64,000 nucleotides of DNA. It comes from a virus. The stretch lies in IMG/VR virus record IMGVR_UViG_3300009130_000005, positions 32,001 to 96,000 of that record; one strand, 5' to 3'. Position numbers and translations under genes: made by a program. Each line of letters starts with the position of its first letter. Positions within the stretch are counted from its first letter, which is position 1. Positions 3,745 to 59,994 of this stretch are shown here, in pieces. The notes beneath the pieces are model-generated. The model had not been told where the DNA came from, made no database searches, and worked only from the letters and a program-made list of their open reading frames with translations.

Positions 3745-6201
3745 ATGAGTATGGAACTAAAACCTAATTTCACGCCAAGAGCGCAAGAAGCAATTATTGG
3801 ATCAAGAACCATTGCGGAGAAATTCAACAAAAGAATGATTACAGAAAATCATTTATGCTTAAGCGTGGCGAGCACTCAAAGCATCAGCATAGCTGAGTTT
3901 TATGCGGCCTGCGGAATAGATCCTAAAAAAATTATAAAATTTATAAAAAGCAAACTTCAAAAAGGCCCTAAGCCACCAACAAACAAATCTTATTTTTCAA
4001 AGAAGTTTAAAGAAATACTCAACGGAGCAATCAAAGAAGCTCAAAAGTATGAACACGATTATGTTGGGGTAGAACACATCCTCCTATCTATTCTTGACAT
4101 GGAAAGCTCCTTGTTCTGTTTATTTTTAAGGTCAGAGGGTCTCGACTCTGATCAAGCAAAGCTAGCAATCAGGGCAAGATTTCTTGTTAGTGAGATGGAA
4201 AAAGAGCCATCGCGAGCCAGAGCAGAAAACATAATTCAATCTGAAGCTGCAACCATGTCGAACCCAAGCCAAAATGCGAACCTGTTAAAGTATTCCGTTA
4301 ACTTTAATTCCCTCGCGCAAGAGGGTAGATTTGATAATGTAATAGGAAGAGATCAAGAGATTAAAGATATGGCTGAAGTCCTATGCAGGAGATCAAAAAA
4401 CAACCCAATACTGCTAGGAGAACCTGGGGTAGGCAAAACTGCAGTTGTTGAAGGTCTAGCACAGGCAATAGTTGGTGGAAATGCTACAGATTTTCTTTTA
4501 AATAAAACAATATACTCTCTTGACCTTGCAGGAATGATCGCTGGAACAAAGTATAGAGGACAATTCGAGGAAAGATTAAAAAAAGTAATGGAAGAGATTG
4601 CAAATGATTCCACTGCAATTTTATTTATTGACGAAATACACACTTTAGTTGGAGCGGGAAGCGCAGAGGGAACTATGGATGCAGCAAACATACTCAAACC
4701 CTTGCTAGCGAGAGGAGAAATAATGTGTATTGGAGCTACAACAAGGGGTGAGTACAGAAAATCTATATTAAAAGATGGCGCCCTAGACAGAAGATTTCAA
4801 CCAATCTTAGTCGAAGAACCTTCGGAAGAAGAGTGCATTGAAATTCTAGAGGGTATAAAAGATAGGTATGAAAAGTTTCACGGGGTAGCTTATTCGAAAG
4901 AAGCATTAAGTAGAGCGGTTAAATTATCTAGTAGATACATTTTGGACAGACAACTTCCCGACAAAGCAATTGACCTTCTGGATCAAGCAGGATCCAAAGC
5001 GAAAATTAGAGGCTTCAAGAGGCCTCAGGAAGCAATTGCAATTGAACAAGAAATTACAGAGCTATATAAAAGTGAAGAAACTTCTAGTGAACCTCATATT
5101 GTAATCAGAAAAAGGGAAGAGTTACTAGAAAAGTATACCAAACTTATAGAAGACTGGGCAAACGAAGCGGTGAAAAAGAAAATTGACGTAGAAGAAGGTG
5201 ACATATATAAAGTTTTAACCCAAAAAACAGGAATCCCAACCGACGATCTTTCACAAACAGACAAAGATAGGGTATTAAAGTTACAACCAAACCTAAAAAA
5301 ATCAGTAATCGGCCAAGATGAAGCTGTCGAACAAATATGCAAATCAATTTTAAGAAATAAAGCTGGCTTAAACGATTCATCTCGACCCATTGGCTCCTTT
5401 TTATTCCTAGGGTCTAGTGGTGTAGGAAAAACTTATTTAGCAAAAAGGCTTTCAAGCCTTATGTTTGGGGGCGAAGACAACGTCATACAATTAGATATGT
5501 CTGAGTTCGGAGAAAAAGCCTCAACTTCTAAAATTTTAGGGTCTGCACCAGGCTATGTTGGCTACGAAGAAGGGGGTTCAATTATTGAAAAAATCAAAAA
5601 GAAACCTCATAGCGTTGTACTTTTTGATGAAATAGAAAAAGCTCACCCTGAAGTCACCAACTTATTACTTCAAATATTAGAAGAAGGAAAACTGACAGAT
5701 AGCTCAGGAAGACAGGCAAGCTTTCGCAATTGTATAATTATTATTACAGGCAATATCGGCTCTGGATTAACAAAGAAAACGAATCAAGTTGGCTTCGGCG
5801 CAAAAGATATCTCCAGCAAAGAAATCAAACAATCAATTATTGAAGAATCAAAGAAAATTTTAAAACCTGAATTAATAAATAGAATAGAATCGCCAATTAT
5901 ATTTAATAATTTTACAGAAAAAGAGCTTAAATTAATTGCTAACTTAGAACTGCAGTCCCTCGCACGAAGGGCAGAGGATAAAGCTGGCAAACTAAAATTC
6001 AATCCAAGCATAATAAACTATTTGTCAAAAAAAGCTTCAGCCATGAACGATGGAGCACGACCCATAAGGAAAATTATAAAAGACGAAATAGAAAACCCTC
6101 TTGCGGAATTACTAATGAAAGGAGACCTTGTGTCGGCAAATTTAACAACAGTTTCTTATTATAAAACCAAACAAGAGGTAAAATTCTCAATTAAAGAGTA
6201 A
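3745..6201 (+). CDS. clpC: ClpC/ClpA-type Hsp100 AAA+ ATPase
   Basis: Clp N-domain repeats, two Walker A motifs (GEPGVGKT, GSSGVGKT), GYVG pore loop, VGF ClpP-docking loop. Confidence 0.88.
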   Translation: MSMELKPNFTPRAQEAIIGSRTIAEKFNKRMITENHLCLSVASTQSISIAEFYAACGIDPKKIIKFIKSKLQKGPKPPTNKSYFSKKFKEILNGAIKEAQKYEHDYVGVEHILLSILDMESSLFCLFLRSEGLDSDQAKLAIRARFLVSEMEKEPSRARAENIIQSEAATMSNPSQNANLLKYSVNFNSLAQEGRFDNVIGRDQEIKDMAEVLCRRSKNNPILLGEPGVGKTAVVEGLAQAIVGGNATDFLLNKTIYSLDLAGMIAGTKYRGQFEERLKKVMEEIANDSTAILFIDEIHTLVGAGSAEGTMDAANILKPLLARGEIMCIGATTRGEYRKSILKDGALDRRFQPILVEEPSEEECIEILEGIKDRYEKFHGVAYSKEALSRAVKLSSRYILDRQLPDKAIDLLDQAGSKAKIRGFKRPQEAIAIEQEITELYKSEETSSEPHIVIRKREELLEKYTKLIEDWANEAVKKKIDVEEGDIYKVLTQKTGIPTDDLSQTDKDRVLKLQPNLKKSVIGQDEAVEQICKSILRNKAGLNDSSRPIGSFLFLGSSGVGKTYLAKRLSSLMFGGEDNVIQLDMSEFGEKASTSKILGSAPGYVGYEEGGSIIEKIKKKPHSVVLFDEIEKAHPEVTNLLLQILEEGKLTDSSGRQASFRNCIIIITGNIGSGLTKKTNQVGFGAKDISSKEIKQSIIEESKKILKPELINRIESPIIFNNFTEKELKLIANLELQSLARRAEDKAGKLKFNPSIINYLSKKASAMNDGARPIRKIIKDEIENPLAELLMKGDLVSANLTTVSYYKTKQEVKFSIKE

Positions 6202-6259: not shown

Positions 6260-6657
6260 GGGGGTGTTCTGGATTCGACTGATGTTGGATTCCTGCACCG
6301 CAAGTCGGAGATGCACTTGGCTTCGATACAAATGTGCAAAGCTTTACATGGCGCTAAAAACCGTGTTAGAGCCCTCGGTCTTAAGAACCGTCTCGCTGCA
6401 AAGCGTTTCGGCTTCAAGAGCCGTAAGCTCGCCTTAGCAGCTTAACCTGCTAACCTCTTACCTTTTGACGCAGATAAGGAGGATAAGGGGTCATCGATCT
6501 GCAAAACAGAAAAGGTTTACCTGTTAATAAACTGTAAATAATTGTAACAGGAAGTTCGATGTTAGTATCAACAACTCAAAAAGAAACTAACTAAACTTGT
6601 AGACGTGCTTGATTGAAGGCACTCAGGACGCGGGTTCAACTCCCGCCACCTCCACCA
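6260..6657 (+). ncRNA. ssrA: tmRNA
   Basis: 5' GGGGGTG...GGATTCGAC; 3' GCGGGTTCAACTCCCGCCACCTCCACCA; G3-U70 alanine identity pair; internal tag ORF 6350-6445 ending LALAA*. Confidence 0.95.
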
Positions 6658-17686: not shown

Positions 17687-17896
17687 GGAAGTTCTCGACG
17701 GAGGCTTCCTGTGGGTGACCGAACAAGCCTGTCGTTAGCGGGCTAAGGTATGCAGATTCCCTGTGGTGGGGTAGCAGAGTCCAATCGGATGAGCTAAAGA
17801 CCATATACCGAGTCTAATCTGTGGTTCGAAGTAGGAAAACATTGAACTGATGTTAACGCCGAAAAGTTGGAGGTATTCAGTAGTCCTTCCCCACAC
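17687..17896 (+). ncRNA. Unassigned structured ncRNA (~210 nt)
   Basis: GC-rich stretch with no ORF in the track, between a promoter and a terminator; nested stems (TGTGGG/CCCACA, AGCCTGT/GCGGGCT, GCAGATT/AATCTGT, AACATT/GATGTT). Confidence 0.65.
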
Positions 17897-17903
17897 TTAT
17901 TTT

Positions 17904-31088: not shown

Positions 31089-32096
31089 ATGATATTAGGA
31101 CTTACATGCATTAGCGAACACCTCAAAGACAAGGATAAGAAAAAATATTCTTTTCGTACTATGACCCGAAAGCGGTTTCATCAACTTGAGAGGCATGACG
31201 CAATCAATCAGTTATCAGAAAGAATTCTGCACAATGTAAGAACTACGAGATACATAATCAACCATTGTATATCTCATAACATACTTCATTACCGCTTAAG
31301 TTCTGCTCTATTTCCCTTAATCACTGACAGTCAAACAGATGTAAATCTCGACGACCTTGATCCCATTTGCTTAACTCAAATTAAAGAAGAGTTAGAATTT
31401 GCAGGCAAAATAGCATATAAACATAATTTATCTATTGGCTCTCATCCCGATCAGTTCAATGTTCTTGCCTCCACCAATGAAGATGCAGTAAACAGAACAA
31501 TTAACGAACTAAATTTTCAAGCAAGCGTTCTTGATATGCTAGGTCTTCCGCAAGACCATACCACCCCAATGAACATTCATATTAATTATACTCCAAAAAT
31601 GGATGAAGGCTACGGAATGGTTGCAGATAGATTTTACAAGAATCTTATGCGTTGCGATGCAGGAGTATTCAATCGACTAACTATCGAGAACGAAGATAAA
31701 GGCTTCTTCAATGTAGATAATTGCATTAATTTTAGCGAATATTTACTTGATACATATGATTTTAATTTGCCTGTATGCTACGATAACTTGCACGACTTCT
31801 GCAATCCATCAGAAGAGCGTAATCTTACATTTCAAGCAGAGCGTTGTGCATATACATGGGTAAGCACAAGACAGCCCACAGAAGCTCCTTATAATAACTT
31901 TATTTCTCCTGTCTTTCATTGGTCTGAAGGTAGACCCGATAAGCCAAGAGCTCATGCAGATTATTTTGCACTAGGCAACCTACCGCCTCATATAGCAATT
32001 GATCCCGATTATCCTGCAAAATGGGAATGTGAAGTTAAGGCTAAAGACAAAGCGATTTTCACACTAAGAGAATCTATTTTCGCAGAAATGACTTGA
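31089..32096 (+). CDS. uvsE: UV DNA damage endonuclease
   Basis: LGLTC, YRLSS.LFP, HPDQF, NIH, LTIENED, HAD, E.KAKD. Confidence 0.88.
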   Translation: MILGLTCISEHLKDKDKKKYSFRTMTRKRFHQLERHDAINQLSERILHNVRTTRYIINHCISHNILHYRLSSALFPLITDSQTDVNLDDLDPICLTQIKEELEFAGKIAYKHNLSIGSHPDQFNVLASTNEDAVNRTINELNFQASVLDMLGLPQDHTTPMNIHINYTPKMDEGYGMVADRFYKNLMRCDAGVFNRLTIENEDKGFFNVDNCINFSEYLLDTYDFNLPVCYDNLHDFCNPSEERNLTFQAERCAYTWVSTRQPTEAPYNNFISPVFHWSEGRPDKPRAHADYFALGNLPPHIAIDPDYPAKWECEVKAKDKAIFTLRESIFAEMT

Positions 32097-57195: not shown

Positions 57196-57531
57196 TCATA
57201 AACCATAGGAATAACTGATATGAAGCATAACAACCTCTCATCTGTTCTCAATAACCTCAAAGGGCGATTCGTTTCGGTTCTTGTCAAGGATGGTGCAAAT
57301 CGCACTTCCTATTCGGCAAAGCTGAAGAGTCACAACTCTGAGGTGGTAACCTTCGTTGATACTAACGAAAGCAAGGGGCGAGTCTTTCGCAAGGTTCGCA
57401 GGTCTGCGGTGCTTGGGCTGAAAAGCGGTAAGCATTCGTTCCGTAGGACGAAAGCCCTGTAAAGGGCAAATAGGCAAATAGCCGACCAAATAGTCCCAAG
57501 GGCGCAAGCCCTTGGGGCTTAGTGGTTTACG

Positions 57532-57550
57532 GAAATCGCCCAGCGATTTT
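57532..57550 (+). repeat. Dispersed palindromic element copy R4
   Basis: GAAATCG-CCCAG-CGATTTT followed by CATGCCAA. Confidence 0.85.
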
Positions 57551-57635
57551 CATGCCAAAGTTTTTTTGAGAAAAGGCTTGACTTATGGCTGACTTCTGTC
57601 ATAATTGTATTCAGTTCTTTTGATAATCAAGTTGT

Positions 57636-57761
57636 GGGCTTGTAGCTTAGTCTGGTCTAGAGCCTTGTCCTCCTTCATCGTGAAATTCTAGATAAATTAG
57701 CGAACGGAGTAATTACCCGTGGAGCAAACAAGAGGCGGGGGTTCAAATCCCTCCAAGCCCT
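57636..57761 (+). ncRNA. tRNA-like RNA with ~50-nt insertion in the anticodon loop
   Basis: Acceptor GGGCTTG/CAAGCCC, D-arm GCTT...GAGC, T-arm GGGGG-TTCAAAT-CCCTC, 57-nt loop; own promoter (TTGACT 57578, CATAAT 57600). Confidence 0.75.
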
Positions 57762-57856
57762 GCTCTTTCAGTAGATGCAAACGCATTGAACAACGAGGCG
57801 TCAGTACACGCCTACAACCCTTCGGGGAGAGAGAAAGAGGTACAACACACAACACT

Positions 57857-57986
57857 TTGGGCATACAACGGACAAGGCTATGGCGAATGAGTTATATCTT
57901 GCCAAGGATAGGAGGCGAAAGCCGTTTGAACTAGCAGTAAGAATAGCAACAAGTCGGTGGGATGCGAGTGGTTGACCAATGCCCAA
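57857..57986 (+). ncRNA. Putative structured ncRNA (~130 nt)
   Basis: Closing stem TTGGGCAT/ATGCCCAA, TGGCGA/TTGCCA stem, GGC-GAAA-GCC tetraloop. Confidence 0.45.
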
Positions 57987-58963
57987 TCTTTTTCAAAAAA
58001 AACCCTTGACAAAAACACATAATCTGTCATACTTATAATCATGAATAACACGGAATCACAATTAGCTTCATTTGAAAATTTGGAATTCAATCAACACCCT
58101 CGCTTTGCTGAAGGCACGGCTATTCAAGCGAGACTCAAGTTTGGGTCGAGAGACCAATTTGAGATTTCAGTCGTCCAAAACATTGGAAGTGGCACAGGCT
58201 TATATGGTCACGAGGATGACAACACTTACGAAGTCGCAATGTGGTTCGATGGAAGAAACACCATGCTTCCCTTATCTCTTTACGACGATGTTCTCGCAGG
58301 ACAATCTCCAAGCGACATCACTCGCCTAATGCATCAAGCACATCTCAACGATTTTGCTTGGGTTACCCTTCTTCACTCTTTGCGAGACGAACATCGCAAG
58401 GAAATGGAGCTTGACAACTAACCTTAACTCTGTCATTATATATGAATTACTCAACCATAGAAGGTTGCATAAGACAATCAACACAAAACAAAATTATGGA
58501 TACACAAAACAACCAATATATAGTTCTCAAGAATGGAGAACCAATGAACATCAAAGGAACGCTTGAGCAAATTACTCATCATGTACGCTTGCTAGAGCAA
58601 GGACTCAATCGACACCTCCAACACTCACCCTATACTATCGGCAAAGCCGATGCAAACTAATTACAAACAAAAAAAGGTATAACTATGAACGAATTCATAA
58701 ATGCGGTAGATAAAATTGTAACGGCTCAACTTGGACTAAGCGTCCATGACTTAGAGGACTTTGCTTTTTGCGATTACTATGACGAAACTTTTGACCCCGA
58801 TGGTTACGACTATCAAAATGCAGTCGAATCCTGTGCGGAAGATTTTCTCGCTGAAGTTGGGAATCTCTTTGTGATGTAGTGATGTGATTAGTCTCTAGGG
58901 CGAAATAGGAAGATGCCAAATACCTACCCTAGTTCGCAAGTCCTTAGGCATCAGGGGCTTGCG

Positions 58964-59271: not shown

Positions 59272-59994
59272 ATGATAAAACAAACATTGCTCACATCAGG
59301 AAACGCTAAAATTGTCAAGGGCGAAAAACTTGGCTACATTACAAAAGGGCTTCACTTCGCTCCTGCAAACCTTTCGGGGTTTGAGGTTTGCCGTTGGAGA
59401 AGCAAGGGTTGCACAATGGCTTGCCTCAACACAGCAGGTCGTGGACAAATGGACTCTATTCAAAATGCTCGCATCGCAAAGACAAAGCTATTCTTCGAGA
59501 AGCAGTTTGACTTTCTTGCAAAGCTAACAAAAGAGATTGCTTCCACTATCAAGTCAGCAGCCAAGAAAGAAATGCAAGCAGTTTTTCGTTTGAACCTCAC
59601 GAGCGACATTGCATGGGAATCTGTTTTCTTTGATGAAGAAAAGCCTCAAAACATTTTCGACAAGTTTCCCGAAACGAAATTTTATGATTACACTAAGTCT
59701 TTCGGGCGTATGGCTCAATTCCTCAATGGCGAGTTGCCAAGCAATTACCATTTGACTTTCTCAGCTTCCGAGCATAACCAAAAGCTAGTCGAGATGGTTT
59801 TGGAAATGGGGGGTAATGTTGCCGTGGTCTTTCGTGACCAACTGCCTTGTACTTGGAAGGGTTTTGAAGTTGTCAATGGTGATGCAAACGATTTGCGTTT
59901 CCTTGACAAGTCGGGCGTGGTCGTTGGGCTTATCGAAAAAGGTCTTGCCAAAAAGGACGAAACAGGATTCGTACAGGAAGGGGTAAATTCATGA
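59272..59994 (+). CDS. Gene88/GP88-like Cys-motif phage protein
   Basis: N.K..K, LHFAPA, VC...S.GC...CL..AGRG, RLN.TSD, FYDYTK, GD.NDLRFLD. Confidence 0.6.
   Translation: MIKQTLLTSGNAKIVKGEKLGYITKGLHFAPANLSGFEVCRWRSKGCTMACLNTAGRGQMDSIQNARIAKTKLFFEKQFDFLAKLTKEIASTIKSAAKKEMQAVFRLNLTSDIAWESVFFDEEKPQNIFDKFPETKFYDYTKSFGRMAQFLNGELPSNYHLTFSASEHNQKLVEMVLEMGGNVAVVFRDQLPCTWKGFEVVNGDANDLRFLDKSGVVVGLIEKGLAKKDETGFVQEGVNS

Follow-up and report, generated by a model that had tools for sequence, protein, structure and literature searches.

Analysis of a 64,000-nucleotide (nt) stretch of viral DNA (positions 32,001 to 96,000 of IMG/VR record IMGVR_UViG_3300009130_000005; the whole stretch is referred to here as the window) showed that a transfer RNA (tRNA)-shaped element at 57636 to 57761 is one part of a longer structured RNA. 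The unit, which covers 57612 to 57846 and possibly reaches ∼57983, is not a tRNA gene but a non-coding RNA that stands alone and is driven by its own promoter. The complete tRNA fold is preserved in its 5′ domain, with an anticodon stem that opens into a two-hairpin junction and not into a 7-nt loop. A conserved four-way junction follows, and pairing between the leader and the tail encloses both domains. The best reading of these features, to which we would give an even chance, is a non-decoding tRNA mimic within a self-associating RNA of ∼215 nt. The RNA family is widespread in marine viral DNA and was present in no catalogue searched. The source record is a linear viral record of 116 kb, about 76% complete, and the promoter and all parts of this RNA lie on the plus strand.

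A complete tRNA fold without an anticodon loop

The Rfam tRNA model (RF00005) covers 57636 to 57761 end to end with 43.7 bits (gathering score, 29), and its alignment places 58 nt where six loop positions would be. Direct reading of the sequence gives a 7-base-pair (bp) acceptor stem (57636 to 57642 with 57754 to 57760), a D arm (57645 to 57663), a 5-bp anticodon stem, CUUGU/ACAAG (57664 to 57668 with 57728 to 57732), a 4-nt variable loop between this stem and the T arm, a T arm with the sequence UUCAAAU (57737 to 57753), and a discriminator U (57761). An earlier note, made from the sequence by itself, had claimed intact acceptor, D, and T arms, and both the Rfam score and the covariation among relatives agree with it. 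U8, A14, a D-loop G, A21, and the T-loop letters G53, U54, U55, C56, A58, and C61 were invariant in 23 aligned sequences, and these elbow letters and the same helices were already visible in a MAFFT alignment.

A covariance model of the tRNA-like domain, R2, was used to align 29 family members. In this alignment, which like the R1 alignment described below was fitted to its model and is thus biased toward structure, 93.9% of the cells were paired, compared to 65.6% after shuffling and at most 50.4% with slid partners. The covariation score was 0.761, compared to 0.243 for shuffled alignments (0 out of 500 reached it) and at most 0.150 for slid ones. Both sides changed in 27 of the 30 pairs, and compensatory changes were found in all seven helices, including the acceptor, D, anticodon, and T stems and both insert hairpins, which answers the question of homolog covariation that the earlier note had raised. 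The stability of the single-sequence fold was unremarkable (z = −1.17), and support for the fold comes from the comparison with relatives and not from folding energy.

The anticodon stem does not lead into a 7-nt loop with U33 and a purine at position 37; a structured insert of 59 nt is found instead. The earlier note had correctly seen that the stem encloses a structured insert, given there as 57 nt within a TTGT/ACAA stem and read here as 59 nt within a 5-bp stem. CCA is also absent behind the discriminator, where the sequence is U-GCU, whereas the three true tRNAs of the window all encode CCA, as the earlier note had stated. In the relatives, the acceptor and T arms are kept, U is found at position −1 in 92 out of 104, and the letters behind the discriminator are GC in 85 out of 104, leading into helix P1 of the four-way junction. 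This junction starts 1 to 2 nt behind the discriminator, which would leave no free CCA end. CC stands behind the discriminator in 8 of the 104, and the six of these that were inspected encode a complete CCA, which is paired within P1. In this subgroup (metagenome contigs L371, L377, L421, L433, L435, and L476), P1 opens with the CCA, which pairs with UGG on the opposite strand, and the tRNA-like bodies begin with A1-U72.

Palindromic tips of the two insert hairpins

The insert (57669 to 57727) contains a CUCC/GGAG helix (57670 to 57673 with 57721 to 57724), hairpin A (57678 to 57703; stem UCGU/GCGA, 57678 to 57681 with 57700 to 57703), and hairpin B (57704 to 57720; stem ACGG/CCGU, 57704 to 57707 with 57717 to 57720; 9-nt loop). 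The CTCC/GGAG pairing and the ACGG...CCGT hairpin had both been noted before; the UCGU/GCGA hairpin is an addition, and the palindromes at the tips, UCUAGA in hairpin A (57687 to 57692) and GUAAUUAC in the loop of hairpin B (57709 to 57716), had been overlooked. The stems of both hairpins covary (helices 5 and 6 of R2).

Comparison of the tips across the family showed several trends. First, hexamer palindromes are enriched in the inserts, with 62 in 28 distinct inserts (1,480 nt) compared to a mean of 23.0 in shuffled sequences (standard deviation, 4.7; maximum, 38 in 1,000 shuffles); the trailers, by contrast, hold 4 in 3,012 nt. Second, the palindromes are placed in loops. Minimum-free-energy folds of the 104 sequences had a palindrome in 79 of 190 hairpin loops, compared to 12 to 22 in each of 20 shuffles. 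Third, different palindromes are swapped at the same position across relatives (GAUC, AAUU, and AGCU; CUAG and CAUG). A good example is hairpin B, the loop of which is 7 nt long in 62 of 67 distinct model-aligned RNAs, with GATC as the central tetranucleotide in 49, AGCT in 4, AATT in 4, CTAG in 3, CATG in 2, TTAA in 2, and none in 3. The loop of hairpin A is 14 nt long in 54 of the 67 RNAs and is conserved well beyond the palindrome. CTAG was tallied in 40 of the 67, and 23 more were scored on an overlapping GTATAC; ACTAGT or ACATGT was present as well in those of the latter that were inspected. Between close relatives, CUAG at this tip is exchanged for CAUG, and the flanking pair alternates among A-U, U-A, and C-G. 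Finally, the tip palindromes do not coincide with the symmetry axis of the hairpins, and their two inner letters are unable to pair within one loop. In a cryo-EM study of OLE, ROOL, and GOLLD RNAs, the switching of an internal tetranucleotide among palindromes, e.g., GGCC, GAUC, and AGCU, served as evidence of symmetric intermolecular kissing loops in OLE and GOLLD (10.1101/2024.12.08.627333).

Some palindromes are depleted in the 64-kb window: CCGG is found 0 times (40 to 76 expected), ACGT 27 times (101 to 213 expected), and GATC 82 times (174 to 213 expected), which looks like restriction-site avoidance. The use of UCUAGA and GUAAUUAC by the window copy in a GATC-depleted phage would fit, speculatively, with palindromy mattering more than the particular letters. 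A possible anti-Shine-Dalgarno mimic in the window insert (CCUCCUU) was discarded; it is confined to a single subgroup and is there paired with GGAG.

The four-way junction and the leader-tail helix

The RNA continues behind the discriminator into a conserved four-way junction (57762 to 57839), which scores 98.7 bits with its covariance model, R1; the earlier note had recognized the tRNA-like part and overlooked this continuation. Helix P1 (57763 to 57769 with 57833 to 57839) has 7 to 8 bp in the family. The junction strand GUAG leads from it to P2 (57775 to 57778 with 57783 to 57786), a hairpin of variable length that is mostly capped by a GNRA tetraloop. The strand UGAACAACG (57787 to 57795) then leads to P3 (57796 to 57801 with 57808 to 57813), ACAA connects P3 to P4 (57818 to 57820 with 57825 to 57827; loop UUCG), and AGAG connects P4 to P1′, the second strand of P1. 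In all, 33 copies in 100 sources gave an alignment of 31 distinct sequences, in which 96.8% of the cells were paired (85.8% after shuffling and at most 61.3% with slid partners) and the covariation score was 0.330 (0.127 after shuffling, with 0 out of 500 reaching the observed score, and at most 0.123 with slid partners). Both sides changed in 7 of the 8 P1 pairs and in 2 of the 3 P2 pairs, and P3, P4, and the junction strands are nearly invariant.

The "boxA-like" feature of the earlier note did not survive this comparison. The boxA-like stretch behind the tRNA-like part, UGCUCUUU, is one strand of the covarying helix P1, and a boxA or nut-site reading was rejected since distant members replace it by unrelated sequences with compensating partners. 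Readings of the trailer by eye as a hammerhead, hatchet, pistol, or twister-sister ribozyme were likewise dropped, with no Rfam match.

Comparison across relatives also showed a helix, P0, between the leader (57612 to 57635, its start placed from the −10 box) and the tail (57840 to 57846), in which GUUGU at 57631 to 57635 pairs with ACAAC at 57842 to 57846. The tail strand of P0 is located 2 to 8 nt behind P1′ across the family, and in relatives a leader with UGU matches a tail with ACA and a leader with UAU matches a tail with AUA. Cognate leader-tail duplexes had a mean of −2.54 kcal/mol compared to −1.89 kcal/mol for non-cognate ones, which 3 of 2,000 permutations reached in a test that is inflated by relatedness. 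A pairing of the leader with P1′ instead is seen in some members and not in distant ones and was dropped.

Downstream, minimum-free-energy folding gave a third folded stretch (57857 to 57983), which is lineage specific and had no relative among the fetched loci. Its 8-bp closing helix, UUGGGCAU/AUGCCCAA (57857 to 57864 with 57969 to 57976), is followed by a U run that is likely the end of the transcript. This stretch is presumably part of the same RNA.

Promoter and RNA-library contigs

The earlier note had given the element a promoter of its own, and a sigma-70-type promoter was indeed found at 57578 to 57605, consisting of TTGACT, a 16-nt spacer, and an extended −10 box, TG-CATAAT (10 of 12 positions matched, TG present). 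It ends 30 nt before the 5′ end of the tRNA-like part, and relatives carry the same promoter and leader ahead of the element. The promoter, the leader, and a stretch of ∼85 nt behind the tRNA-like part are common to many loci, and the tRNA-like body between them has diverged.

Part of the region is present in 14 sequencing runs, of which 11 are recorded as RNA. Contigs were examined from four marine runs belonging to four studies. These cover the trailer and the downstream stretch, and contigs of two runs match 57857 to 57983 at about 95 to 97%. In three records, contigs of relatives continue without a break from the tRNA-like domain into the trailer, and one of the three includes part of the insert. 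No splice joints were seen in the contigs of the four runs. One relative is represented by a 220-nt contig that starts only a few nucleotides away from where the tRNA-like part begins, without the leader, and ends ∼10 nt behind the tail helix; these ends match the proposed RNA unit. The RNA-library contigs are supportive, short of proof, of expression and non-splicing of this RNA family.

Distribution of the family

Starting from a GP88-family gene near the element (59272 to 59994), 80 related viral loci were identified. Of 198 fetched loci that were compared with the element by BLAST, three contained a full-length relative, and the two-part trailer motif was found in 42 viral contigs, 4 marine metagenome-assembled-genome (MAG) contigs, and at least 120 metagenome contigs. 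The MAG contigs, which belong to discordant taxa, are probably binned phage DNA. When 42 related viral records were searched whole, 12 held the element, with one copy each. The tRNA-like part could be delimited in 115 of 123 distinct units, corresponding to 104 distinct sequences, all of 95 to 200 nt; none of the 115 was of canonical tRNA size. Default ARAGORN called an abutting tRNA in 3 of the 123 units, all forced calls of 86 to 98 nt.

Rfam 15 has a family for neither domain (whole window searched at gathering scores and 57400 to 58000 at E values up to 1), and GenBank phages gave no match or partial, chance-level matches only (E ≥ 0.07). No description of this RNA family was found in literature searches, and it may be among the thousands of candidate viral RNAs reported in PMC10690425.

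Some loci show other arrangements of these modules. At L315 (5440 to 5860, minus strand), one transcription unit contains, in this order, a first tRNA-like part, the four-way junction, a second tRNA-like part whose insert is nearly identical to that of the window, the beginning of a second, truncated trailer, and a mini tRNA-like piece of 64 nt with CCACCA at its end; this tandem arrangement means that the modules combine. At L140 (7010 to 7300), a GP88-neighbor locus without the trailer, the same promoter and leader are followed by a different RNA-like stretch of ∼105 nt with a T arm and a long acceptor-like pairing and without a D arm. At least 118 viral stretches (L001 to L118) were picked up by a pattern search for tRNA arms separated by 72 to 102 nt. 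Many of these look like other phage tRNAs with 40- to 60-nt inserts and recurring motifs such as ACAGCAA or UUACUUC, and some resemble a tRNA nested in a tRNA; none matches the insert of this family.

Weighing of the proposed self-associating tRNA mimic and its alternatives

Under the favored reading, the two tips would form symmetric loop-loop (kissing) contacts between copies, giving a dimer or higher oligomer. Several points weigh against it. First, the case for oligomerization is a pattern in the sequence. Because of the relatedness of the sequences, their counts do not represent independent events, and the alignments are model fitted. Second, hairpin B has no palindromic tip in 3 of the 67 RNAs, and the same is true of some distant members, e.g., L314; where present, the tip palindromes are A/U rich, so each contact would be weak. 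Third, the element was found in 0 of the 4 related records with a completeness of at least 90%, making it dispensable for some relatives. No partner protein was linked to it, the neighboring genes being shuffled between relatives, and the four MAG contig matches, given their discordant taxa, point to no host. Finally, RNA libraries may hold DNA, and the contigs do not cover the window insert (57636 to 57737).

The palindromic tips could instead bind a symmetric (dimeric) protein, with the RNA acting as a protein sponge or a ribonucleoprotein scaffold. This seems unlikely. The exposed position of the palindromes at the tips would suit such a protein, as would the conservation of the 14-nt loop of hairpin A well beyond its palindrome. 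However, the same tip uses GAUC, AAUU, AGCU, or CAUG, which suits self-pairing better than recognition by a sequence-specific protein, and no conserved neighbor gene was found.

Another explanation, which we find quite improbable, is that the tRNA shape is a processing handle that recruits RNase P and a 3′ endonuclease to free the junction or the tRNA-like piece, as in MALAT1/mascRNA. The preserved acceptor and T arms with U at −1 speak for a handle, as do the CCA encoded behind the discriminator in 8 of 104 relatives and the 220-nt contig that starts near the tRNA 5′ end and lacks the leader. Yet a handle leaves unexplained why the two hairpins are conserved and covary and why they have palindromic tips. 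In addition, P1 begins 1 to 2 nt behind the discriminator and absorbs the CCA where present, three contigs bridge the boundary between the tRNA-like part and the trailer, and there is pairing between leader and tail.

The earlier note had offered two options, an intron-containing tRNA and a tRNA mimic. The first, in which host or phage enzymes would excise the insert and join the halves into a decoding tRNA, now appears very unlikely. It could draw on the intact cloverleaf, which scores as a tRNA, and on tRNAs with unexplained introns reported for Lak megaphages (PMC6784885). In the ARAGORN check that had been proposed, default ARAGORN made no call at 57636 to 57761, and with introns enabled it returned "tRNA-Ala(agc)" with a 52-nt intron and a G at position 33, an arbitrary solution that is not credible. 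To examine excision directly, the anticodon stem was set to the first five pairs, and every possible single segment was removed such that 7 nt remained with Y32, U33, and R37. This gave 0 solutions in the window copy and solutions in 16 of 85 parsed relatives, with inconsistent anticodons. In many relatives, moreover, the anticodon stem enters the two hairpins with only 2 to 3 unpaired nt, and a bulge-helix-bulge is not conserved, as the junction shapes vary without a conserved 3-4-3 motif. (A tally of junction lengths was not used because the model holds part of each helix and the tally overstates the unpaired lengths.) A group I core takes a couple of hundred nucleotides or more; the insert, at 59 nt, is too short for such an intron, as the earlier note had argued, and matched no intron family at E values up to 1. 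The tRNA_int_endo, RtcB, and RNA_ligase domains were not found in the 116-kb record, which at 76% completeness counts for little. A conserved helix incorporates the 3′ end, and the RNA-library contigs contain no joints, with one relative's contig holding the insert.

The tRNA-mimic option fared better in part. It is supported to the extent of a non-decoding, tRNA-shaped RNA. Of the putative targets suggested for a decoy (anticodon nucleases, synthetases, and stringent-response sensors), anticodon nucleases in particular would find no anticodon loop in this RNA. Last, a DNA-level element (an operator, an origin, or restriction or methylation sites) that merely resembles RNA is highly improbable: palindromes are classic shapes of DNA sites, and the phage avoids some of them (CCGG, 0; GATC, 82 compared to 174 expected), but the compensatory changes preserve helices with G-U pairs included, the tip palindromes are not centered on the symmetry axis of the hairpins, whose loops have 7 and 14 nt, and the promoter and the RNA-library contigs point to RNA.

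Proposed mechanism and significance

Taking the RNA as a self-associating tRNA mimic, its tRNA-shaped module would make it a client of, or a competitor for, a host machine reading the tRNA shape and not the anticodon, the simplest candidate being RNase P. The blocked 3′ end and the missing anticodon would exclude the RNA from translation. The invariant four-way junction is probably the effector or partner-binding part, and the location of the unit amid small-gene cassettes led by promoters suggests that it acts early in infection. A more specific proposal, held tentatively and well short of even chances, is a small self-assembling particle that, early in infection, traps or redirects a host factor reading the tRNA shape. 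With two kissing loops per copy, dimers, rings, or chains could form that would display several tRNA-shaped modules and invariant junctions. If true, the particle would be akin in principle to the ROOL and GOLLD cages, but compact and with a tRNA as its scaffold.

Mimicry of tRNA is known from transfer-messenger RNA (tmRNA), viral tRNA-like ends, and Y-RNA-like RNAs, and self-assembly of phage RNA is known from ROOL and GOLLD. This family, found in marine viral DNA and marine RNA libraries, would join the two in a small RNA of ∼215 nt. Its small size makes the RNA amenable to direct structural and biochemical study, the palindrome-switching tips make a clean, testable prediction, and the near-invariant four-way junction may represent a new functional RNA motif. 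There is also a warning for annotation, as tRNA finders overlook this RNA or call an intron-bearing tRNA with an invented anticodon.

Comparison with known RNAs

A likeness in kind is seen with ROOL, GOLLD, and OLE, which are phage-borne, promoter-driven, highly structured RNAs; ROOL and GOLLD are large and ornate and are often near tRNA genes. The palindrome-switching tetranucleotide described for OLE and GOLLD (10.1101/2024.12.08.627333) is also found at the tips of this RNA. However, this RNA is about 215 to 370 nt long compared to 500 to 800 nt, contains a complete tRNA fold as a domain, and has an oligomeric state predicted from sequence. The Rfam models for GOLLD, ROOL, OLE, Y RNA, and pRNA gave no match in the searches described above.

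The packaging RNA (pRNA) of phi29, made from an early promoter, has a three-way junction and two loops that pair between copies to form a ring. Its loops are complementary to each other and not self-complementary. This RNA differs further in having no match to the Rfam pRNA model and no link to packaging genes.

Like this RNA, tmRNA joins a tRNA-like domain to non-tRNA structure and can be phage encoded; this phage encodes a true, full-length tmRNA at 6260 to 6657 (132.1 bits). In contrast to tmRNA, the element has a complete D arm, a G-C and not a G-U pair at 3:70, and no tag frame, pseudoknots, or CCA end. G3-U70 is absent from the window copy, and G-U is found there in 10 of 104 relatives. 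Rfam ranks tRNA above tmRNA for 57636 to 57761.

The T4 species 1 and 2 RNAs (rnaC and rnaD) are also small stable RNAs beside phage tRNA genes, and rnaC has a T arm and an acceptor-like stem at its end. In the T4 tRNA region, searched with filters off, R2 scored 16.5 bits on rnaC, compared to 51 to 121 bits for family members, and R1 scored at most 6.1 bits within rnaD. On these scores, rnaC and rnaD are not members of this RNA family. The tRNA-like genes of Lak megaphages likewise carry inserts of unexplained nature in the region of the anticodon. As described in PMC6784885, these "enigmatic introns" are in tRNAs with an assigned isotype, anticodon, and excision point, whereas none of the three is assignable here and a conserved second domain is attached; this comparison is by description only.

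Genomic context and other features of the window

The RNA unit is one cassette amid many promoter-led small genes. Neighboring genes recur in relatives, but their order is shuffled and they occur on either side of the RNA. The commonest neighbor encodes a 126-amino-acid protein (58041 to 58421) without a Pfam match, which is located within 6 kb of the element in 22 of 39 loci, with variable position and side. Upstream, a 9-bp GC-rich hairpin at 57495 to 57516 has a terminator-like score on the minus strand, and a second small dyad with a T run (∼57528 to 57548) is directly upstream of the promoter; the two are probably the end of the preceding cassette. The tmRNA gene stands directly behind a ClpB-like ATPase gene (3745 to 6201). 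A PolyA_pol match of 17.8 bits, below the cutoff, is inside this ClpB-like gene and was dismissed. A manA RNA motif is present at 17687 to 17899 (83.4 bits).
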